The notes under the pieces: model-generated
What the model was told of the DNA's origin: nothing
The model's database searches: none
The model's input: the letters and a program-made list of their open reading frames with translations, nothing else
In this document: positions 1-4,389 of the stretch, piece after piece
How positions within the stretch are numbered: position 1 is the first letter of the stretch
How the letters are laid out: each line of letters opens with the position of its first letter
IMG/VR virus record: IMGVR_UViG_2711768053_000013
Span: 1 to 4,389 of that record
Length of the DNA: 4,389 nucleotides
Reading direction: 5' to 3' (one strand)
Origin: a virus
Taxonomy: Duplodnaviria; Heunggongvirae; Uroviricota; Caudoviricetes
Made by a program: the position numbers and the translations under genes

Positions 1-1
1 T

Positions 2-958
2 CTGATAGTCACAGACCCGCCATACTTTAAAGTGAAGCCCGAGGGCTGGGATAACCAGTGGAAGGGCGACGATGATTACCTGAAATGGCTGGATCAGTGT
101 CTGGCGCAATTCTGGCGGGTACTGAAACCTGCCGGAAGTCTCTACCTGTTCTGTGGTCATCGTCTGGCATCTGACACCGAAATCATGATGCGTGAGCACT
201 TTAATGTGCTGAACCACATTATCTGGGCGAAGCCGTCCGGGCGCTGGAACGGATGCAACAAGGAAAGCCTGCGGGCGTATTTCCCGGCAACAGAACGCAT
301 TCTGTTTGCAGAACATTATCAGGGGCCATACCAACCCAAAAATGACGGCTATGCGGCAAAGGGGCGCGAGCTAAAACAGCACGTCATGGCCCCGCTGATT
401 TCTTACTTTCGTGATGCGCGTGAATCACTGGGAATAACGTCAAAACAGATAGCGGAAGCCACCGGAAAGAAAAACATGGCTTCGCACTGGTTTGGTATCT
501 GTCAGTGGCAGTTACCGAACGAGGGTGATTACAACAAATTGCAGGCGTTGTTTGCGCGTGTTGCGGCAGAAAAACATCAGCGCGGGGAACTGGAAAAGCC
601 ACACCGCCAACTGGTAAGCACATACAGTGAACTGAACCGGCAATATGCCAGCTTGCTGGAAGAGTACAAATCCCTGCGGCGTTATTTTTCCGTATCGGCA
701 GCTGTTCCTTATACGGATGTCTGGACGCATAAACCCGTGCAGTTTTATCCGGGCAAACATCCCTGTGAAAAACCAGCCGATATGTTGCGCCAGATAATTA
801 CTGCCAGCAGCCGTCCGGGTGATTTGGTTGCTGATTTTTTCATGGGCTCAGGCTCAACAATAAAAGCAGCACTTTCACTGGGACGCCGTGCGATTGGCGT
901 GGAACTGGAAGAAGAGAGATTTAATCAGACTGTAACTGAAATAAAAAATATCTGTTAA
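2..958 (+). CDS. DNA N6-adenine (amino) methyltransferase, beta-class; 5'-truncated by the window edge
   Basis: Frame 2 is open from the window edge and begins LIVTDPPYFK (DPPY catalytic motif IV). An AdoMet-binding FxGxG motif (DFFMGSGST) lies near the C-terminus, giving the motif IV-before-motif I order of beta-class amino-MTases. Stop TAA at 956-958. The ORF track starts at GTG 32 only because the true start lies upstream of the window. Confidence 0.85.
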   Translation: MIVTDPPYFKVKPEGWDNQWKGDDDYLKWLDQCLAQFWRVLKPAGSLYLFCGHRLASDTEIMMREHFNVLNHIIWAKPSGRWNGCNKESLRAYFPATERILFAEHYQGPYQPKNDGYAAKGRELKQHVMAPLISYFRDARESLGITSKQIAEATGKKNMASHWFGICQWQLPNEGDYNKLQALFARVAAEKHQRGELEKPHRQLVSTYSELNRQYASLLEEYKSLRRYFSVSAAVPYTDVWTHKPVQFYPGKHPCEKPADMLRQIITASSRPGDLVADFFMGSGSTIKAALSLGRRAIGVELEEERFNQTVTEIKNIC

Positions 959-1038
959 TTGTGTATGGTGTTATTTCTTATAATTCCGGAATAATAAAAA
1001 TATATATGTATATTTACAATTGCTGACGAGCATTTTTA

Positions 1039-1066
1039 TTGAAAGCGTCCGGGGTATTCGTATTAT
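1039..1066 (+). promoter_or_regulatory. candidate sigma70 promoter for the tRNA array (-35 TTGAAA, 16-bp spacer, -10 TATTAT)
   Basis: TTGAAA at 1039-1044 and TATTAT at 1061-1066. An A+T-rich tract (about 990-1035) lies upstream, UP-element-like. A GC-rich stretch (GCGCTGCGCC, 1068-1077) follows the -10, resembling the discriminator of stable-RNA promoters. Position fits a start roughly 25 nt before the first tRNA. Confidence 0.4.
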
Positions 1067-1098
1067 TGCGCTGCGCCAGAGCAATGATGCAATGGGCA

Positions 1099-1175
1099 GG
1101 CCCTTTAGCTCAGTTGGTCAGAGCGAGCGACTCATAATCGCCAGGTCGCTGGTTCAAGTCCAGCAAGGGCCACCA
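1099..1175 (+). tRNA. tRNA-Ile2 (anticodon CAT, lysidine-type; a Met reading cannot be excluded from the anticodon alone)
   Basis: Cloverleaf read by hand: 7-bp acceptor stem GGCCCTT/AAGGGCC, T8 A9, D-stem GCTC/GAGC, anticodon loop CTCATAA (CAT at 1133-1135), T-arm GCTGG-TTCAAGT-CCAGC, discriminator A, encoded CCA. Closely resembles my recollection of E. coli tRNA-Ile2 (ileX-type). Confidence 0.9.
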
Positions 1176-1176
1176 G

Positions 1177-1253
1177 CCGCCACTAGCTCATCCGGATAGA
1201 GCATCAACCTTCTAAGTTGATGGTGCGAGGTTCGAGTCCTCGGTGGCGGGCCA
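1177..1253 (+). tRNA. tRNA-Arg (anticodon TCT, reads AGA)
   Basis: Acceptor CCGCCAC/GTGGCGG (7 bp), T8 A9, D-stem GCTC/GAGC, anticodon stem TCAAC/GTTGA with loop CTTCTAA (TCT at 1211-1213), T-arm CGAGG-TTCGAGT-CCTCG, discriminator G, encoded CCA. Begins only 1 nt after the previous tRNA. Unusually starts with C1-G72. Confidence 0.85.
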
Positions 1254-1255
1254 GT

Positions 1256-1331
<76 letters not shown>

Positions 1332-1334
1332 TAT

Positions 1335-1409
<75 letters not shown>

Positions 1410-1544
1410 GCAGAGGACGATAGATACTAGGTTGTGTTTAGGCACTGACACATTTTATGTGGGGCGTTTTTCCTGACTCCTTACCTCGCCCTGTACTGTA
1501 ATGAGAGATATCTGTTGCAGCACCAGTGCCATTTTTTACGCCAC

Positions 1545-1610
1545 CGGAATGGTGCATTATTGGTAGAGATTTGCAATGTCTCTGGCAGGGGCTGGTAATG
1601 CATCATTCCG
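1545..1610. repeat. long imperfect inverted repeat (15-bp arms) with a nested 6-bp hairpin
   Basis: Arm 1 CGGAATGGTGCATTA (1545-1559) and arm 2 TAATGCATCATTCCG (1596-1610) are reverse complements at 14 of 15 positions; the one mismatch is a G-T (G-U in RNA). The 36-nt spacer holds a nested hairpin, AGAGAT (1565-1570) / GTCTCT (1578-1583) around loop TTGCAAT. Confidence 0.7.
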
Positions 1611-1681
1611 ATGTTGTAAGCATCGCTCAGAATAACGTTGAGATTAATCGCGTACTAAGCAAAACCTGGAAATACATCCTT

Positions 1682-1707
1682 AACCGCCGCACTAGGCGGT
1701 TTTTTTT
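1682..1707 (+). terminator. rho-independent terminator candidate
   Basis: GC stem CCGCC (1684-1688) / GGCGG (1695-1699), 6-nt loop GCACTA, followed directly by eight T (1700-1707). Confidence 0.6.
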
Positions 1708-1792
1708 ATTCATTTTTTTCATGGCTCGCTACGGCGGGCCTTTTCATATCCTCGCCACACCCGGCGTATATCACATCAAATAACGCCGCGCA

Positions 1793-1814
1793 AAAGGCAT
1801 CTGCGGGTGCCTTT
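1793..1814 (+). other. stem-loop (7-bp stem AAAGGCA/TGCCTTT, 8-nt loop) without an immediate U-tract
   Basis: AAAGGCA (1793-1799) pairs with TGCCTTT (1808-1814). No T-run follows, so this is not a canonical terminator; it may be a processing or regulatory structure. Confidence 0.3.
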
Positions 1815-1831
1815 GACGGGGTGTTTTTTAC

Positions 1832-1853
1832 GGGCCGCTGGTGGCCCTTTTTT
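1832..1853 (+). terminator. rho-independent terminator candidate immediately upstream of the holin RBS
   Basis: Stem GGGCC (1832-1836) / GGCCC (1843-1847), loop GCTGGT, then TTTTTT (1848-1853). Ends 7 nt before the AGGAGA Shine-Dalgarno of the holin gene. Confidence 0.55.
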
Positions 1854-1871
1854 ATTTACAGGAGAAAAAGT

Positions 1872-2264
1872 ATGTCTGAACCCTTATCCGGTTCCGGCAC
1901 GGCTGCGGCGCTCGGCGGGGCGACGGTGTACGGGCTGTTTACCGGAACGGATTTCGGGATTGTGTTTGGTGCGTTCGCCGGGGCGTTATTTGTGGCAACG
2001 ATGCCACAGACGCTTTCAGCCTGGCGTGTGGCAGCGCATTTTCTGGTGTCGTTCATTATCGGCGTGCTGGGCGCAGAGGTTCTGGCTGTCTGGCTGGTAA
2101 AGCACACAGGATTTGACAGTGCGCCTGTTGACGCATTGTGTGCAGTACTGGTGTCAGTGGTGTCGGTGAAGATTCTCTCGTTCATCCACCAGCAGGATAT
2201 TGCATCGCTGGTGTCCGGCCTGTTCTCCCGCCTGCGGGGGGGAGGAGGCGGCAATGTTAAGTAA
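1872..2264 (+). CDS. putative holin (130 aa, multi-TM membrane protein); first gene of the lysis cassette
   Basis: ATG at 1872 preceded by AGGAGA (1860-1865). The translation has three to four hydrophobic helices (GGATVYGLFTG, FGIVFGAFAGALFVATM, AAHFLVSFIIGVLGAEVLAVWLV, ALCAVLVSVVSVKILSFI) and a mildly basic tail. It lies directly upstream of, and overlaps, the other lysis genes. Family not identified. Confidence 0.65.
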   Translation: MSEPLSGSGTAAALGGATVYGLFTGTDFGIVFGAFAGALFVATMPQTLSAWRVAAHFLVSFIIGVLGAEVLAVWLVKHTGFDSAPVDALCAVLVSVVSVKILSFIHQQDIASLVSGLFSRLRGGGGGNVK

Positions 2265-2529
2265 CCTTCCCGGATTACTGAATGTGGCGTTATGCATGGT
2301 TATCGTGCTGACGCTCTTTTTTTATCGTCGCCGTGATTCCAGGCATAAACCGCTGATGTCATGGCTGGCCTGGTTGCTGATGCTGCTGTATGCCTTTGCG
2401 CCCCTCAGCTATCTGTGTGGTCGCCCGTTAGCAACGGGCTGGCTGGAAGTGTTTTTTAATCTGCTGTTCTGCGTGCTGGTGATACGCGCGCGCGGGAATG
2501 TCACAAAAATCTTTCCATTGTTGAGGTGA
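2254..2529 (+). CDS. small 3-TM membrane protein (91 aa); possible second holin or antiholin-like lysis accessory
   Basis: ATG at 2254 preceded by GGAGGAGG (2241-2248); overlaps the holin 3' end by 11 nt in another frame. Three hydrophobic segments separated by short basic loops (YRRRDSRHK; RARGNVTK at the C-terminus). Stop TGA at 2527-2529 sits 2 nt before the endolysin start. Confidence 0.6.
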   Translation: MLSNLPGLLNVALCMVIVLTLFFYRRRDSRHKPLMSWLAWLLMLLYAFAPLSYLCGRPLATGWLEVFFNLLFCVLVIRARGNVTKIFPLLR

Positions 2530-2531
2530 AT

Positions 2532-2909
2532 ATGTCGGGTAAATTCAGATTCAGTCGTCGTAGCGAAAAAAATCTGGAGGGCGTCAAACCACAGCTGGTT
2601 GCTGTCGTTCGCCGTGCGCTGGAGCTGACGGAGGTTGATTTCGGTATTACGGAAGGTCTGCGCAGTAAGTATCGCCAGAAACAGCTGGTTGCAGAAGGTA
2701 AGAGCCAGACCATGAACAGCCGCCACCTGACCGGTGATGCTGTGGATGTTGTGGCTTATGTTGGCAGCCAGGTGTCATGGGACTGGCCTCTGTACGAGAA
2801 AATCGCGCAGGCATTTAAGCAGGCTGCCGCAGAGCTGGGAACCGCCATCGAATGGGGCGGGGACTGGAAAACACTGAAAGACGGACCTCACTTTCAGTTG
2901 AAACGATGA
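2532..2909 (+). CDS. endolysin, peptidase M15 family (L-alanyl-D-glutamate peptidase type)
   Basis: ATG at 2532 with GAGG 5 nt upstream. The translation carries an SRHLTGDAVD motif (His65, Asp72) plus a C-terminal His (DGPHFQ), the Zn-ligand arrangement I recall for T5-type L-Ala-D-Glu peptidase endolysins. Size 125 aa, no signal or TM segment. The ORF track start at 2526 is a GTG two codons upstream in the same frame. Confidence 0.85.
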   Translation: MSGKFRFSRRSEKNLEGVKPQLVAVVRRALELTEVDFGITEGLRSKYRQKQLVAEGKSQTMNSRHLTGDAVDVVAYVGSQVSWDWPLYEKIAQAFKQAAAELGTAIEWGGDWKTLKDGPHFQLKR

Positions 2910-2938
2910 CAGCTTTTATTCTGCAGGAGAATGTTTTG

Positions 2939-2982
2939 AAAAAAAATAAACAAAAAGCCGCAGCATCGGCAAATGCAGCGGC
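2939..2982 (-). terminator. rho-independent terminator for the minus-strand gene 3042-3311
   Basis: On the minus strand an imperfect GC-rich hairpin (plus-strand 2957-2982: GCCGCAGC...GCAGCGGC, 7 bp with one A-A mismatch, 10-nt loop) is followed by a T-rich run (complement of the A-run at 2939-2956). Confidence 0.55.
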
Positions 2983-3041
2983 TGGCACAAAAACCGAATT
3001 GTCATTTTTTGAGCAAATTCAGTCAGAGATTATGGCAATAT

Positions 3042-3311
3042 TTAATGAAGTAGTCCGTTAATCTCTCCTCTGATGTTCTCTTGTGATTGTTCCTCGCCTG
3101 CCTCAATACCCCTGGCAATCTGGCTGAAAATAACATTGGCGAGCTTGCCATTGTGTCTGGTTAGCAGGCGTTCACCCTCCTGAAGGAATGAATTGGCTAG
3201 CTCCTGCTTGTCGCAGCCAGTGAGGCTTGCGACTTTTAGTGAGAGGTGAGTCAGAGCCATTTGCTGGCTGCTGATTAAGGCGACAATTACTTCCAGTTGC
3301 TCTTTAGTCAT
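3042..3311 (-). CDS. hypothetical protein, 89 aa, predicted soluble and helical; independently expressed accessory gene
   Basis: ATG (complement of 3309-3311) preceded on the minus strand by AAAAAGGAGTGTTC, an AGGAG Shine-Dalgarno with 5-nt spacing. Own terminator downstream (2939-2982). Opposite orientation to the flanking late genes. No motif recognised in MTKEQLEVIVALISSQQMALTHLSLKVASLTGCDKQELANSFLQEGERLLTRHNGKLANVIFSQIARGIEAGEEQSQENIRGEINGLLH. Confidence 0.6.
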   Translation of the reverse strand: MTKEQLEVIVALISSQQMALTHLSLKVASLTGCDKQELANSFLQEGERLLTRHNGKLANVIFSQIARGIEAGEEQSQENIRGEINGLLH

Positions 3312-3395
3312 GAACACTCCTTTTTGCGTTTAGTTCAGCGGGGATTGTATCAAGTGAATTGCAAAATTATGAGCCGAAAGCACTGGACACACAGA
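3312..3395. promoter_or_regulatory. divergent promoter region between the minus-strand 89-aa gene and the lipoprotein gene
   Basis: The 84-bp gap between the two divergent start codons has a minus-strand extended -10 candidate, TGATACAAT (complement of 3344-3352). It overlaps a plus-strand candidate: -35 TTGTAT (3345-3350), 17-bp spacer, -10 TATGAG (3368-3373). Both are weak to moderate matches. Confidence 0.35.
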
Positions 3396-3551
3396 ATGCC
3401 GCGAACGGCGGCGAAATGGGCACTGGTAGCGATACTGGTGCCTTTTTTCCTGGTGGGATGCGTCAGCCTGGATAAAGCGCGCCAGCTTTTCGATACAGCT
3501 TCTCAGGTCTGTGAAATTGTCGACGGTGTTCGGCAGTGTCTGCAGAACTGA
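3396..3551 (+). CDS. small lipoprotein (51-aa precursor; lipobox LVGC; about 30-aa mature peptide with two further Cys)
   Basis: MPRTAAKWALVAILVPFFLVGC has a basic n-region, a hydrophobic h-region and an L-V-G-C lipobox. The mature part CVSLDKARQLFDTASQVCEIVDGVRQCLQN has two more cysteines. An in-frame ATG at 3369 would add nine residues (MSRKHWTHR). Neither start has a strong Shine-Dalgarno. Confidence 0.5.
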   Translation: MPRTAAKWALVAILVPFFLVGCVSLDKARQLFDTASQVCEIVDGVRQCLQN

Positions 3552-3562
3552 TCACCTGTAAA

Positions 3563-3578
3563 AGCAAAATATTTTGCT
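3563..3578. repeat. perfect 16-bp palindrome AGCAAAATATTTTGCT
   Basis: The sequence equals its own reverse complement. It lies 12 nt after the lipoprotein stop, in the 170-bp gap upstream of the 99-aa gene, and is not followed by a T-run on either strand. Confidence 0.6.
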
Positions 3579-3722
3579 GAAAAATGAAGGATGCGCCAGC
3601 GTCCGGAAAGCATGAAATTCTGTGTTTGTGGCTATTCAATAAAATAAATTCTTTCTGTCGCCGCGAATACTCAAATGTTGAACAGTGCCCGGTGCGGCGA
3701 CGGGCTTCGATATCAGGAGACG

Positions 3723-4022
3723 ATGATGGAAAAAACAGAAAACAAACCGATTGTAATTGGTGCTGATGCTGCTCCGTTTATGTTTGAGTTGTCTCAACTG
3801 GTGGAGATGCGCATCAGTGATGAATGGGGTGAGGTTAAAGCCCGCGCGCAGTATGCGGATGGCGAAAACCAGTACTTGATCCACTACAAAGCAGCTGATG
3901 GTCGCGCCACAACGGAGTGGTTTGGTGAGTCAATGCTGGAAGCAACAGAAGATGATCGCCATCCGGGCTGTCCGGTATTTGCCGGTATGAAATTACCGGA
4001 AGGCGCAGTTGTTACTGAGTAA
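3723..4022 (+). CDS. hypothetical small acidic protein (99 aa)
   Basis: Tandem ATG ATG at 3723/3726 preceded by AGGAGA (3714-3719). About 19 Asp/Glu against 9 Lys/Arg, no hydrophobic segment. Same strand as, and directly upstream of, the HNH endonuclease gene. Confidence 0.6.
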   Translation: MMEKTENKPIVIGADAAPFMFELSQLVEMRISDEWGEVKARAQYADGENQYLIHYKAADGRATTEWFGESMLEATEDDRHPGCPVFAGMKLPEGAVVTE

Positions 4023-4083
4023 CAGGCATTACAGCAGCCCTTCAGTGAGGGGCTGCGATAATGCCGGTATTAAGGAGATTCCA

Positions 4084-4389
4084 ATGCCATCACGAATACC
4101 CCGCGCCTGTCGTAAGCGTGGATGTGCAGGCACAACAACAGACAGTTCGGGTTACTGCGATAAGCATCGCGGTGAAGGCTGGGTGCAGCACCAGCGCGGA
4201 CTGAGCCGCCACCAGCGTGGCTATGGCTCAAAATGGACGGTGATTCGTGCCCGTATTCTGAAGCGCGATAAAGGTCTGTGTCAGTTGTGTCTGCGTGTCG
4301 GTGTGGTGAGCGAGGCGAAAACCGTCGACCACATCATCCCGAAAGCGCATGGCGGAACAGACGCAGATAGCAACCTGCAGAGTCTGTGC
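4084..4389 (+). CDS. HNH endonuclease (phage packaging-associated type); 3'-truncated by the window edge
   Basis: ATG at 4084 with AAGGAG (4072-4077) 6 nt upstream. Hand translation MPSRIPRACRKRGCAGTTTDSSGYCDKHRGEGWVQHQRGLSRHQRGYGSKWTVIRARILKRDKGLCQLCLRVGVVSEAKTVDHIIPKAHGGTDADSNLQSLC shows Cys pairs (CxxC...CxxC) and the DHIIPxxxGG...N HNH core. Open to the end of the window. Confidence 0.85.
   Translation, partial: MPSRIPRACRKRGCAGTTTDSSGYCDKHRGEGWVQHQRGLSRHQRGYGSKWTVIRARILKRDKGLCQLCLRVGVVSEAKTVDHIIPKAHGGTDADSNLQSLC

Follow-up and report, generated by a model that had tools for sequence, protein, structure and literature searches.

A partner-less 30-residue lipopeptide as a candidate for the outer-membrane step of lysis in phiP27-like prophages

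The window analyzed here is a 4,389-nucleotide stretch of Caudoviricetes DNA (IMG/VR record IMGVR_UViG_2711768053_000013, positions 1 to 4,389). It belongs to a phiP27-like E. coli prophage: a prophage of E. coli ESC818 matches it at 100% identity, and its lysis-to-packaging region is ~95% identical to that of the Stx2e phage phiP27. Within it, the gene for a very small lipoprotein of family phrog_7528 is the fourth and last gene of a lysis cassette (holin, holin, endolysin, lipoprotein). With all mechanistic variants pooled, we consider it likely that the outer-membrane step of lysis is carried out by this gene's product or depends on it. The genomic evidence leans toward a more specific package, in which a late outer-membrane lipopeptide would replace the spanin without any phage-encoded inner-membrane spanin (i-spanin). 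This applies to the package as a whole and less to its details; localization, disulfide bonding and membrane mechanism we infer from sequence. More tentatively still, a 30-residue disulfide-bonded lipopeptide might suffice alone for this step and so form a third class of disruptor, by far the smallest. Phage lysis-cassette lipoproteins flagged as outer-membrane spanins (o-spanins) are already known; this one is unusual in being minimal and partner-less. An earlier note on the same DNA had taken the product for a candidate superinfection-exclusion or envelope-targeting factor. Its description of a lipoprotein with extra cysteines and no partner was borne out, and the exclusion or receptor-blocking function was not.

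The last gene of the lysis cassette

The open reading frame (ORF) first noted has 51 codons, from ATG 3396 to TGA 3549-3551, and is translated as MPRTAAKWALVAILVPFFLVGC followed directly by VSLDKARQLFDTASQVCEIVDGVRQCLQN. Its LVGC motif fits the lipobox pattern [LVI][ASTVI][GAS]C and is preceded by a basic n-region and a hydrophobic core, and the mature peptide of 30 amino acids (aa) has zero proline (Table 1). The protein matches phrog_7528 (E 1.9e-29), a family annotated as 'unknown function'. A hidden Markov model search over 1.8 billion representative proteins returned 23 clusters that form a single narrow enterobacterial family with two subclades; every one of 141 homologous protein clusters is from Enterobacterales, and 349 of 5426 complete E. 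coli genomes (~6%) carry the gene. Pairwise dN/dS (ratio of nonsynonymous to synonymous substitution rates) is 0.13-0.27, indicative of purifying selection on the protein. Across both subclades (24 diverse homologues aligned), only M1, G30, C31, C48 and C57 are invariant, and the Cys and Gly codons show synonymous variation. Hence the ORF is confirmed as a real, conserved and constrained gene, and three features in the earlier note hold: the ~30-residue mature part, the basic n-region with LVGC lipobox (by rule, with G30 and C31 invariant) and the two extra cysteines, C48 and C57, which are functionally constrained. No family was found at E<=0.1 in a Pfam-A scan, NCBIfam and PADLOC gave no match, and a sequence search of PDB gave no meaningful match. 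Calls of the gene by the Prokaryotic Genome Annotation Pipeline (PGAP) vary among E. coli genomes (51, 60 or 62 aa, or uncalled).

The true start is most likely ATG 3369, which adds MSRKHWTHR to the 51-aa version to give 60 aa, rather than 3396. The 51-aa version aligns to positions 10-60 of the 60-position phrog_7528 profile; family members are therefore nine residues longer at the N terminus. Homologues have T, I, V, A or Q in place of Met10, which is encoded at 3396, whereas the MxRKHWTHR upstream of it is conserved. Over codons 2-16, dN is 0.06-0.24 versus a dS of 0.5-1.75, and Arg3 and Arg9 are each encoded by three to four synonymous codons among homologues. In cassettes with a GH108-type endolysin (our loci L088, L091 and L100), this earlier ATG and the stop codon of the endolysin gene are merged in an ATGA. 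An 84-aa N-terminally extended ORF (MGRGLEN...) that begins inside the endolysin gene was rejected as mechanical read-through, impossible in the GH108-type cassettes.

To place the gene in context, we collected ~100 loci (87 plus 14 more distant ones) from Escherichia, Salmonella, Citrobacter, Cronobacter, Yersinia and Lelliottia. In the 87 and in the 14, the lipoprotein gene lies directly 3' of the endolysin gene, usually with a 14-nt gap or an ATGA overlap. The commonest order, seen in most of the 87 (e.g. L004), is holin, holin, M15 endolysin, 14-nt gap, lipoprotein gene. The endolysin is either of the M15 type or GH108+PG_binding_3, and the holins are either Phage_holin_8 plus 3_7 or a single Phage_holin_3_1. 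The latter accompanies subclade 2 (L096-L099), probably including Lelliottia L007, judged by holin size. Downstream, five unrelated modules occur (P27-type Terminase_4/HNH, Terminase_6, Terminase_2, ParB/GpA and Mu-like head), on sipho-, myo- and Mu-like backbones. The gene therefore travels with lysis genes and not with those for packaging or tails. A link with the phrog_1935 and HNH genes that lie downstream, suggested by a megablast block at 3367-3720, was discarded, since downstream neighbors differ between loci. The non-coding 171-bp spacer at 3552-3722 is conserved along with the lipoprotein gene in many E. coli copies and contains a perfect 16-bp AT-rich palindrome, AGCAAAATATTTTGCT, at 3563-3578; it is absent where HNH comes directly after the lipoprotein gene.

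A Q-type antiterminator gene lies upstream in the genome, so the holin gene and everything after it belong to the late operon. The region 1039-1862 looks like a late-operon leader (pR'/tR'-like), and a consensus scan found no promoter-like site within 2800-3800. We infer that the lipoprotein gene is transcribed only late, from the Q-antiterminated operon. These observations bear on the proposal of the earlier note, in which the product would act in superinfection exclusion or receptor masking, like Cor and Llp, or on the envelope, like Bor. Such roles are common among small phage lipoproteins; the bor gene of lambda comes right after Rz/Rz1, morons are frequently inserted at the endolysin-lipoprotein junction, and a late product might in theory cover receptors on cell debris in the manner of T5 Llp. 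Yet searches of Pfam, NCBIfam and PADLOC detected no homology to Cor, Llp, Bor or Rz1, and in PHROGs only phrog_7528 was matched. Moreover, the gene sits in the late operon behind three terminators and, in canonical loci, is co-oriented with and translationally coupled to the endolysin gene; given this coupling and the lack of its own promoter, no expression in lysogens is expected. Its linkage is to the lysis cassette in phages with unrelated tail and packaging modules, and so with different receptors, whereas tail-gene linkage would be expected for a receptor blocker. It is also pseudogenized where a spanin exists (see below). Exclusion is thus very improbable as its function.

In the window itself, a 459-bp insertion separates the endolysin and lipoprotein genes (Table 1). 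Megablast homology to most E. coli copies starts sharply at ~3367, because the insertion is absent from most of them. The junction is a hot spot that elsewhere has received small membrane ORFs, a KilA-N gene, an ais-like phosphatase gene or LT-IIb toxin genes, and here ORF41 and ORF89. These two are convergent, with 3' ends overlapping by 20 nt, and have phiP27 alleles (46% identity for ORF89, 59% for the plus-strand ORF); neither gave a Pfam, NCBIfam or PADLOC match. They may be a moron or a small toxin-antitoxin-like pair. The small membrane ORFs, one or two in each of many loci (L019, L021, L035 and L062 at 5826-5999; L033, L057 and L072 at 5662-5844 and 5862-5996; L090 at 4662-4996), lie directly upstream of the lipoprotein gene, and some end at its start codon. 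They belong to phrog_4493/1115 (57-60 aa, with a C-terminal transmembrane domain) and phrog_4906 (44 aa) and are absent from the window.

The spanin slot and the search for a partner

We then asked what occupies this position in related cassettes. Klebsiella phage Seifer and phage mEp390 both encode a homologous holin pair. In Seifer, the GH108 endolysin that comes next is succeeded by a type II membrane protein of 128 aa and by an 87-aa protein annotated as o-spanin. In mEp390, the holin pair and a lysozyme precede a 91-aa i-spanin-like protein and an overlapping small lipoprotein, and in P88 a related M15 endolysin precedes a DUF2570 protein. As all three carry spanin-type genes after the endolysin, the position is the spanin slot. 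The converse arrangement is seen in the 933W-like phage GER2 and in an E. coli ML35 prophage. Both have S-R-Rz/Rz1 and, further downstream, a lipoprotein homologue that carries a +1 frameshift and three in-frame stops. Rz homologues occur in 2 of 106 loci, namely these two, and Rz or DUF2570 homologues occur only where the lipoprotein gene is dead or absent. The 60-80% identity class to which the dead copy belongs contains some 31 E. coli records. Among Shiga toxin (Stx) phages, Rz has been found in 277 of 279, and the two exceptions are Stx2e, P27-type phages with a metallopeptidase endolysin (PMC8136144).

phiP27 has been listed as having a 'separated' two-component spanin, with the lipoprotein ORF as its o-spanin (Kongari et al. 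2018, PMC6139136). The published i-spanin is at 20348-20542 (64 aa, 32 periplasmic residues) and the o-spanin at 20706-20861 (51 aa, 30 mature residues); the pair (62 aa) is the shortest of 528 systems, and both members are singleton families (PMC6139136). In our analysis, the 64-aa ORF (L001 4565-4759) has a TTG start and lies antisense to a 90-aa minus-strand gene. It is the minus-strand gene that is conserved at full length, phiP27 versus ORF89 of the window (46% identity, E 3e-21). When the 64-aa ORF is aligned to the window by tblastn, a stop codon interrupts the match; no PHROG family was found for it, and the segment that holds it is absent from most loci, including the canonical cassette. 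For these reasons we rejected this shadow ORF as a partner, and the published phiP27 i-/o-spanin pairing should be dropped. The RefSeq coding sequence P27p32 'L32' (MHGDFISRL...; NC_003356, L001 4847-5002) is in another frame than the lipoprotein ORF (4896/4923-5078), so that two phiP27 records are corrected here, the 'i-spanin' and the wrong-frame L32.

Other candidates for a partner fared no better. No recurrent ORF with a single N-terminal transmembrane domain (type II membrane protein) was found within 2.5 kb of intact copies in ~100 loci; this and the shadow nature of the published candidate agree with the statement of the earlier note that there is no partner i-spanin. The holins were rejected, as Seifer and mEp390 encode the same pair together with genuine spanin pairs, and as the holin of subclade 2 is a different one. 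The phrog_4493/1115 and phrog_4906 ORFs were rejected because the canonical cassette does not contain them and their products would have hardly any periplasmic domain. A YmfR-like 60-aa membrane protein encoded between terminase and portal is confined to the P27-type packaging module.

Could the protein nonetheless be a genuine two-component o-spanin, whose partner comes from the host, from a phage gene elsewhere, or from the protein itself as uncleaved precursor held in the inner membrane by its unusually conserved signal peptide? It is a predicted outer-membrane lipoprotein in a lysis cassette, and its periplasmic cysteines C48 and C57, a type of residue that serves homotypic intermolecular disulfides in o-spanins (PMC6139136), are invariant, as in T4 PseT.2; the commonest spanin combination is zero Cys in the i-spanin and two in the o-spanin (PMC6139136). 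The earlier note had argued against an o-spanin on the ground that the protein is not proline-rich, which is weak evidence: the T4 PseT.2 family has no proline-rich region and two essential C-terminal Cys, and the phiP27 ORF is already listed as a 'separated' o-spanin in the supplement of the same survey (PMC6139136). A Lelliottia homologue also weakly matches phrog_1275, 'Rz-like spanin' (E 0.008), and the higher conservation of the n- and h-regions over the mature part would fit a precursor with a function. However, no cognate i-spanin (a type II inner-membrane protein with a periplasmic coiled coil), whether adjacent, overlapping or embedded, accompanies the gene, and since the cassette moves among unrelated backbones, an unlinked partner conserved across these phages is improbable. 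Constraint on a nucleotide element, the hairpin described below, accounts for most of the h-region conservation, and 30 + 30 residues would barely span the periplasm. Overall, we regard an o-spanin with an unrecognized partner as unlikely.

The lipopeptide, its possible mode of action and the rest of the window

The lipoprotein signal was assessed by a sequence rule (n-region, h-region and lipobox pattern). All three elements of a signal peptidase II substrate are present, and lipidation and cleavage are predicted; a long, strongly basic n-region is found in every family member. Residue +2 is Val, and Asp is never at +2 anywhere in the family. In E. coli, Asp at +2 governs inner-membrane retention versus outer-membrane sorting by the Lol system, and sorting to the outer membrane is therefore predicted. 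The net charge of the mature peptide is -1 in the window and -1 to +2 across the family. AlphaFold2, run on the 24-sequence alignment, gave one long helix at low confidence (pLDDT 65), and Jpred assigned 83% helix to the phiP27 o-spanin ORF (PMC6139136 supplement). The amphipathic segment has a hydrophobic moment of 0.5-0.6 over 18 residues, with 0.53 for the best 18-mer. Hydrophobic residues at mature positions 4, 7, 11, 14, 18, 21, 24 and 28 follow an i+3/i+4 pattern, which would put mature Cys18 in a helix-helix interface. The protein ends ...VRQCLQN and has no hydrophobic C-terminal segment.

From these features, the following course of events can be proposed. The product would be exported, lipidated at Cys31 and cut by signal peptidase II, and Lol would sort the lipopeptide, a 30-residue helix with two invariant cysteines, to the inner leaflet of the outer membrane. 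There it would take the spanin's place and perform or enable the third step of Gram-negative lysis, the breach of the outer membrane, once the inner-membrane barrier and the wall have given way to holin and endolysin. Disulfide-linked homo-oligomers would build up harmlessly before wall removal; a helix of ~45 Å is unable to cross the intact wall, so the peptide would be inert until the endolysin acts. With the wall gone, turgor would push the inner membrane onto the outer, and the amphipathic peptide would insert into or bridge the apposed membrane and destabilize or fuse it.

Several points weigh against this reading. At 30 aa (~45 Å as a helix), the mature peptide is too short to span the periplasm, and we know of no phage in which a lone outer-membrane lipoprotein has been demonstrated to break the outer membrane at lysis. 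The peptide is only moderately amphipathic, as the moment of the whole mature peptide (0.33) is matched by 6% of shuffles, and the peptide is not cationic. A clear Shine–Dalgarno sequence is missing at both candidate starts in the window, where the insertion also uncouples the gene from the endolysin gene. The pseudogene evidence amounts to a single evolutionary event. SerU-LTIIb (L108 3327-3602) has the same holin pair and GH108 endolysin, followed by LT-IIb enterotoxin genes, with neither the lipoprotein gene nor a recognizable spanin; hence the gene is dispensable at least for prophage persistence. Finally, in the small number of lineages sampled, each lipoprotein subclade goes with its own holin family, which could mean a holin-linked role.

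The last two points also speak for a lysis accessory, such as a periplasm-facing regulator of holin triggering (antiholin-like, lysis inhibition) or a timing factor. Subclade 1 goes with Phage_holin_8 plus 3_7 and subclade 2 with Phage_holin_3_1, with either endolysin type, and small membrane ORFs of phrog_4493/1115 and phrog_4906 are often inserted alongside. Against this, the holins offer almost no periplasmic domain to bind, outer-membrane sorting by +2 Val would be poor placement for regulating an inner-membrane holin, and the subclade-holin correlation comprises two independent groups only. Decay of the gene where Rz/Rz1 is present and its replacement by spanin pairs point to a spanin role, and we find an accessory function quite improbable.

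The signal peptide merits separate comment, as codons 17-27 contain a terminator-like hairpin (Table 1; fold energy about -19 kcal/mol). Its nucleotides are identical in the Escherichia, Salmonella, Citrobacter, Yersinia and Lelliottia copies, the last of these despite 58% protein identity, and the Cronobacter hairpin has two changes with the stem kept or extended. Synonymous differences amount to 6.5% in stem codons versus 36.7% elsewhere in the gene, a comparison in which the sequence pairs are non-independent and only the effect size is meaningful. Distant members with other h-regions have a weaker hairpin (L096 and L098) or none (L100). Constraint on the hairpin at the nucleotide level largely explains why the signal peptide looks more conserved than the mature part. 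The hairpin could be an intragenic terminator, an mRNA 3' end, a site of translational pacing or a recombination boundary; it might also gate the amount of lipopeptide made.

Conservation of the signal peptide has another possible meaning. Colicin lysis proteins, which permeabilize the envelope without a partner, have the same format (~50-60 aa precursor, ~30 aa lipopeptide, LVGC-type lipobox) and a lytic context, and the unusually conserved signal peptide of the phage protein recalls their functional stable ones. By analogy, the phage lipopeptide, perhaps with a stable signal peptide, would accumulate in the envelope, perturb the lipid asymmetry of the outer membrane and activate the host phospholipase PldA, leading to permeabilization. 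This route is a serious rival, since colicin lysis proteins are the only known lone envelope-permeabilizing lipopeptides of such size. But no similarity was detected (the Pfam scan, which gave no family at E<=0.1, included the colicin lysis family), and the signal peptide owes some of its conservation to constraint on the RNA or DNA. Whereas colicin lysis proteins are rich in Gly, Ser and Thr, lack structure and have no extra Cys, the phrog_7528 family is predicted to be helical and has two invariant Cys. We know of no phage that uses PldA for lysis. On this evidence, a colicin-type mechanism is unlikely.

If a partner-less lipopeptide does perform the outer-membrane step, a protein bridge across the periplasm would not be required, and a third class of disruptor would stand beside spanins and the cationic disruptin. 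In a survey of 677 phages of Gram-negative hosts, 91 (~13%) had no recognizable spanin, and 31 of these had a lipoprotein but no i-spanin (PMC6139136). The phrog_7528 family offers a clean case for studying spanin-less outer-membrane breach in an easily manipulated host. Should a lone 30-aa lipopeptide do the job, the membrane-fusion model of spanins and automated spanin annotation would need revising, and a minimal outer-membrane-breaching peptide would be relevant to endolysin-based antibacterial design.

The remaining features of the window are given in Table 1. Rfam matched the four tRNA genes and nothing else. phiP27 has stx2e where the window has the leader/tRNA region; the window prophage is therefore a toxin-free relative. 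Other cargo lies just upstream of the lysis cassette in related prophages: a gene for a pertussis-toxin-S1/scabin-like ADP-ribosyltransferase in Cronobacter (L090 2489-3217), and a HigB-like toxin with a helix-turn-helix antitoxin in Yersinia (L088 1144-1717).

Table 1. Features of the window and dead copies of the lipoprotein gene (coordinates refer to the window unless another locus is named)
Feature	Coordinates	Strand	Remarks
DNA methyltransferase	32-958	+	
Promoter-like site	1039-1066	+	Start of putative late-operon leader
Four tRNA genes	1099-1409	+	CAT (Ile per PGAP), Arg-TCT, Thr-TGT, Gly-TCC
Three terminator-like hairpins	1682-1701, 1723-1740, 1832-1847	+	Preceding holin
Lysis gene 1, holin Phage_holin_8	1872-2264	+	Pfam E 4e-22; phrog_198 holin
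Lysis gene 2, holin or antiholin Phage_holin_3_7	2254-2529	+	Pfam E 6e-22; phrog_217 holin
Lysis gene 3, M15 metallopeptidase endolysin	2532-2909	+	Without signal or signal-arrest-release (SAR) sequence; Peptidase_M15_4 E 1.5e-12; phrog_465 endolysin E 5e-75
Insertion (459 bp) between endolysin and lipoprotein genes	2910-3368		Holds ORF41 and ORF89; absent from canonical cassette
ORF41, small ORF	2936-3061	+	
ORF89, 89-aa ORF	3042-3311	-	phrog_36812
Truncated counterpart (36 aa) of published i-spanin	3073-3183	+	Antisense shadow of ORF89
Lipoprotein gene, most likely full coding sequence	3369-3551	+	60 aa, stop included; start at 3396 in the earlier note and in PGAP
Predicted signal peptide	3369-3458	+	n-region MSRKHWTHRMPRTAAK (5 K/R, 2 H); h-region WALVAILVPFF; lipobox LVG before Cys31
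Terminator-like element in codons 17-27	3418-3449	+	11-bp hairpin 3418-3443, then TTTTTT; consensus scan
Predicted mature 30-aa lipopeptide CVSLDKARQLFDTASQVCEIVDGVRQCLQN	3459-3548	+	Cys31 (lipobox Cys, 3459-3461), predicted lipidated residue; Cys48 3510-3512; Cys57 3537-3539
phrog_1935 ORF	3723-4022	+	
HNH endonuclease	4084 onward	+	Ahead of P27-type terminase
Dead lipoprotein copy, GER2	L102 2988-3171		After ais-like phosphatase moron, before terminase
Dead lipoprotein copy, ML35	L103 3502-3685		After ais-like phosphatase moron, before terminase

Comparison with known systems

The phrog_7528 protein resembles o-spanins (lambda Rz1, T4 PseT.2) in being a predicted outer-membrane lipoprotein that forms the last element of a lysis cassette and has conserved periplasmic cysteines. 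It differs in having no cognate i-spanin, in a mature length (30 aa) that is the shortest in the survey of PMC6139136, and in being, by prediction, fully helical, without proline. No similarity above threshold to spanin families was found in Pfam or PHROGs. With unimolecular spanins (u-spanins; T1 gp11), it shares a single gene that ends the lysis cassette, an N-terminal outer-membrane lipoprotein signal and association with various holins and endolysins. Periplasmic Cys is absent from all 58 u-spanins in that survey, and the u-spanin fold is rich in beta structure (PMC6139136); the phrog_7528 family, in contrast, is predicted to be helical and has two invariant Cys. The phrog_7528 protein also lacks the C-terminal transmembrane domain that defines u-spanins, and thus any covalent link to the inner membrane.

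Cor, Llp and Bor are likewise small phage-encoded outer-membrane lipoproteins. Their genes have their own promoter or early expression and lie beside tail genes or antisense to late genes. The phrog_7528 gene, in contrast, shows coupling to the endolysin gene in canonical loci, without a separate promoter-like site or linkage to receptor-binding genes, and no homology to them was detected. A further parallel is the disruptin of coliphage phiKT (gp28), reported to be a small, cationic antimicrobial-type peptide that stands in for spanins in outer-membrane disruption in a phage lacking them (bioRxiv 10.1101/515445). The phrog_7528 protein differs in being (by prediction) lipid-anchored and Cys-containing, and with a charge of -1 to +2 is not a cationic peptide. 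As for colicin lysis proteins, they are made from an SOS-controlled colicin operon and the phrog_7528 protein from a phage late operon, and it lies outside Lysis_col; what the phrog_7528 family shares with them is size class and lipobox.

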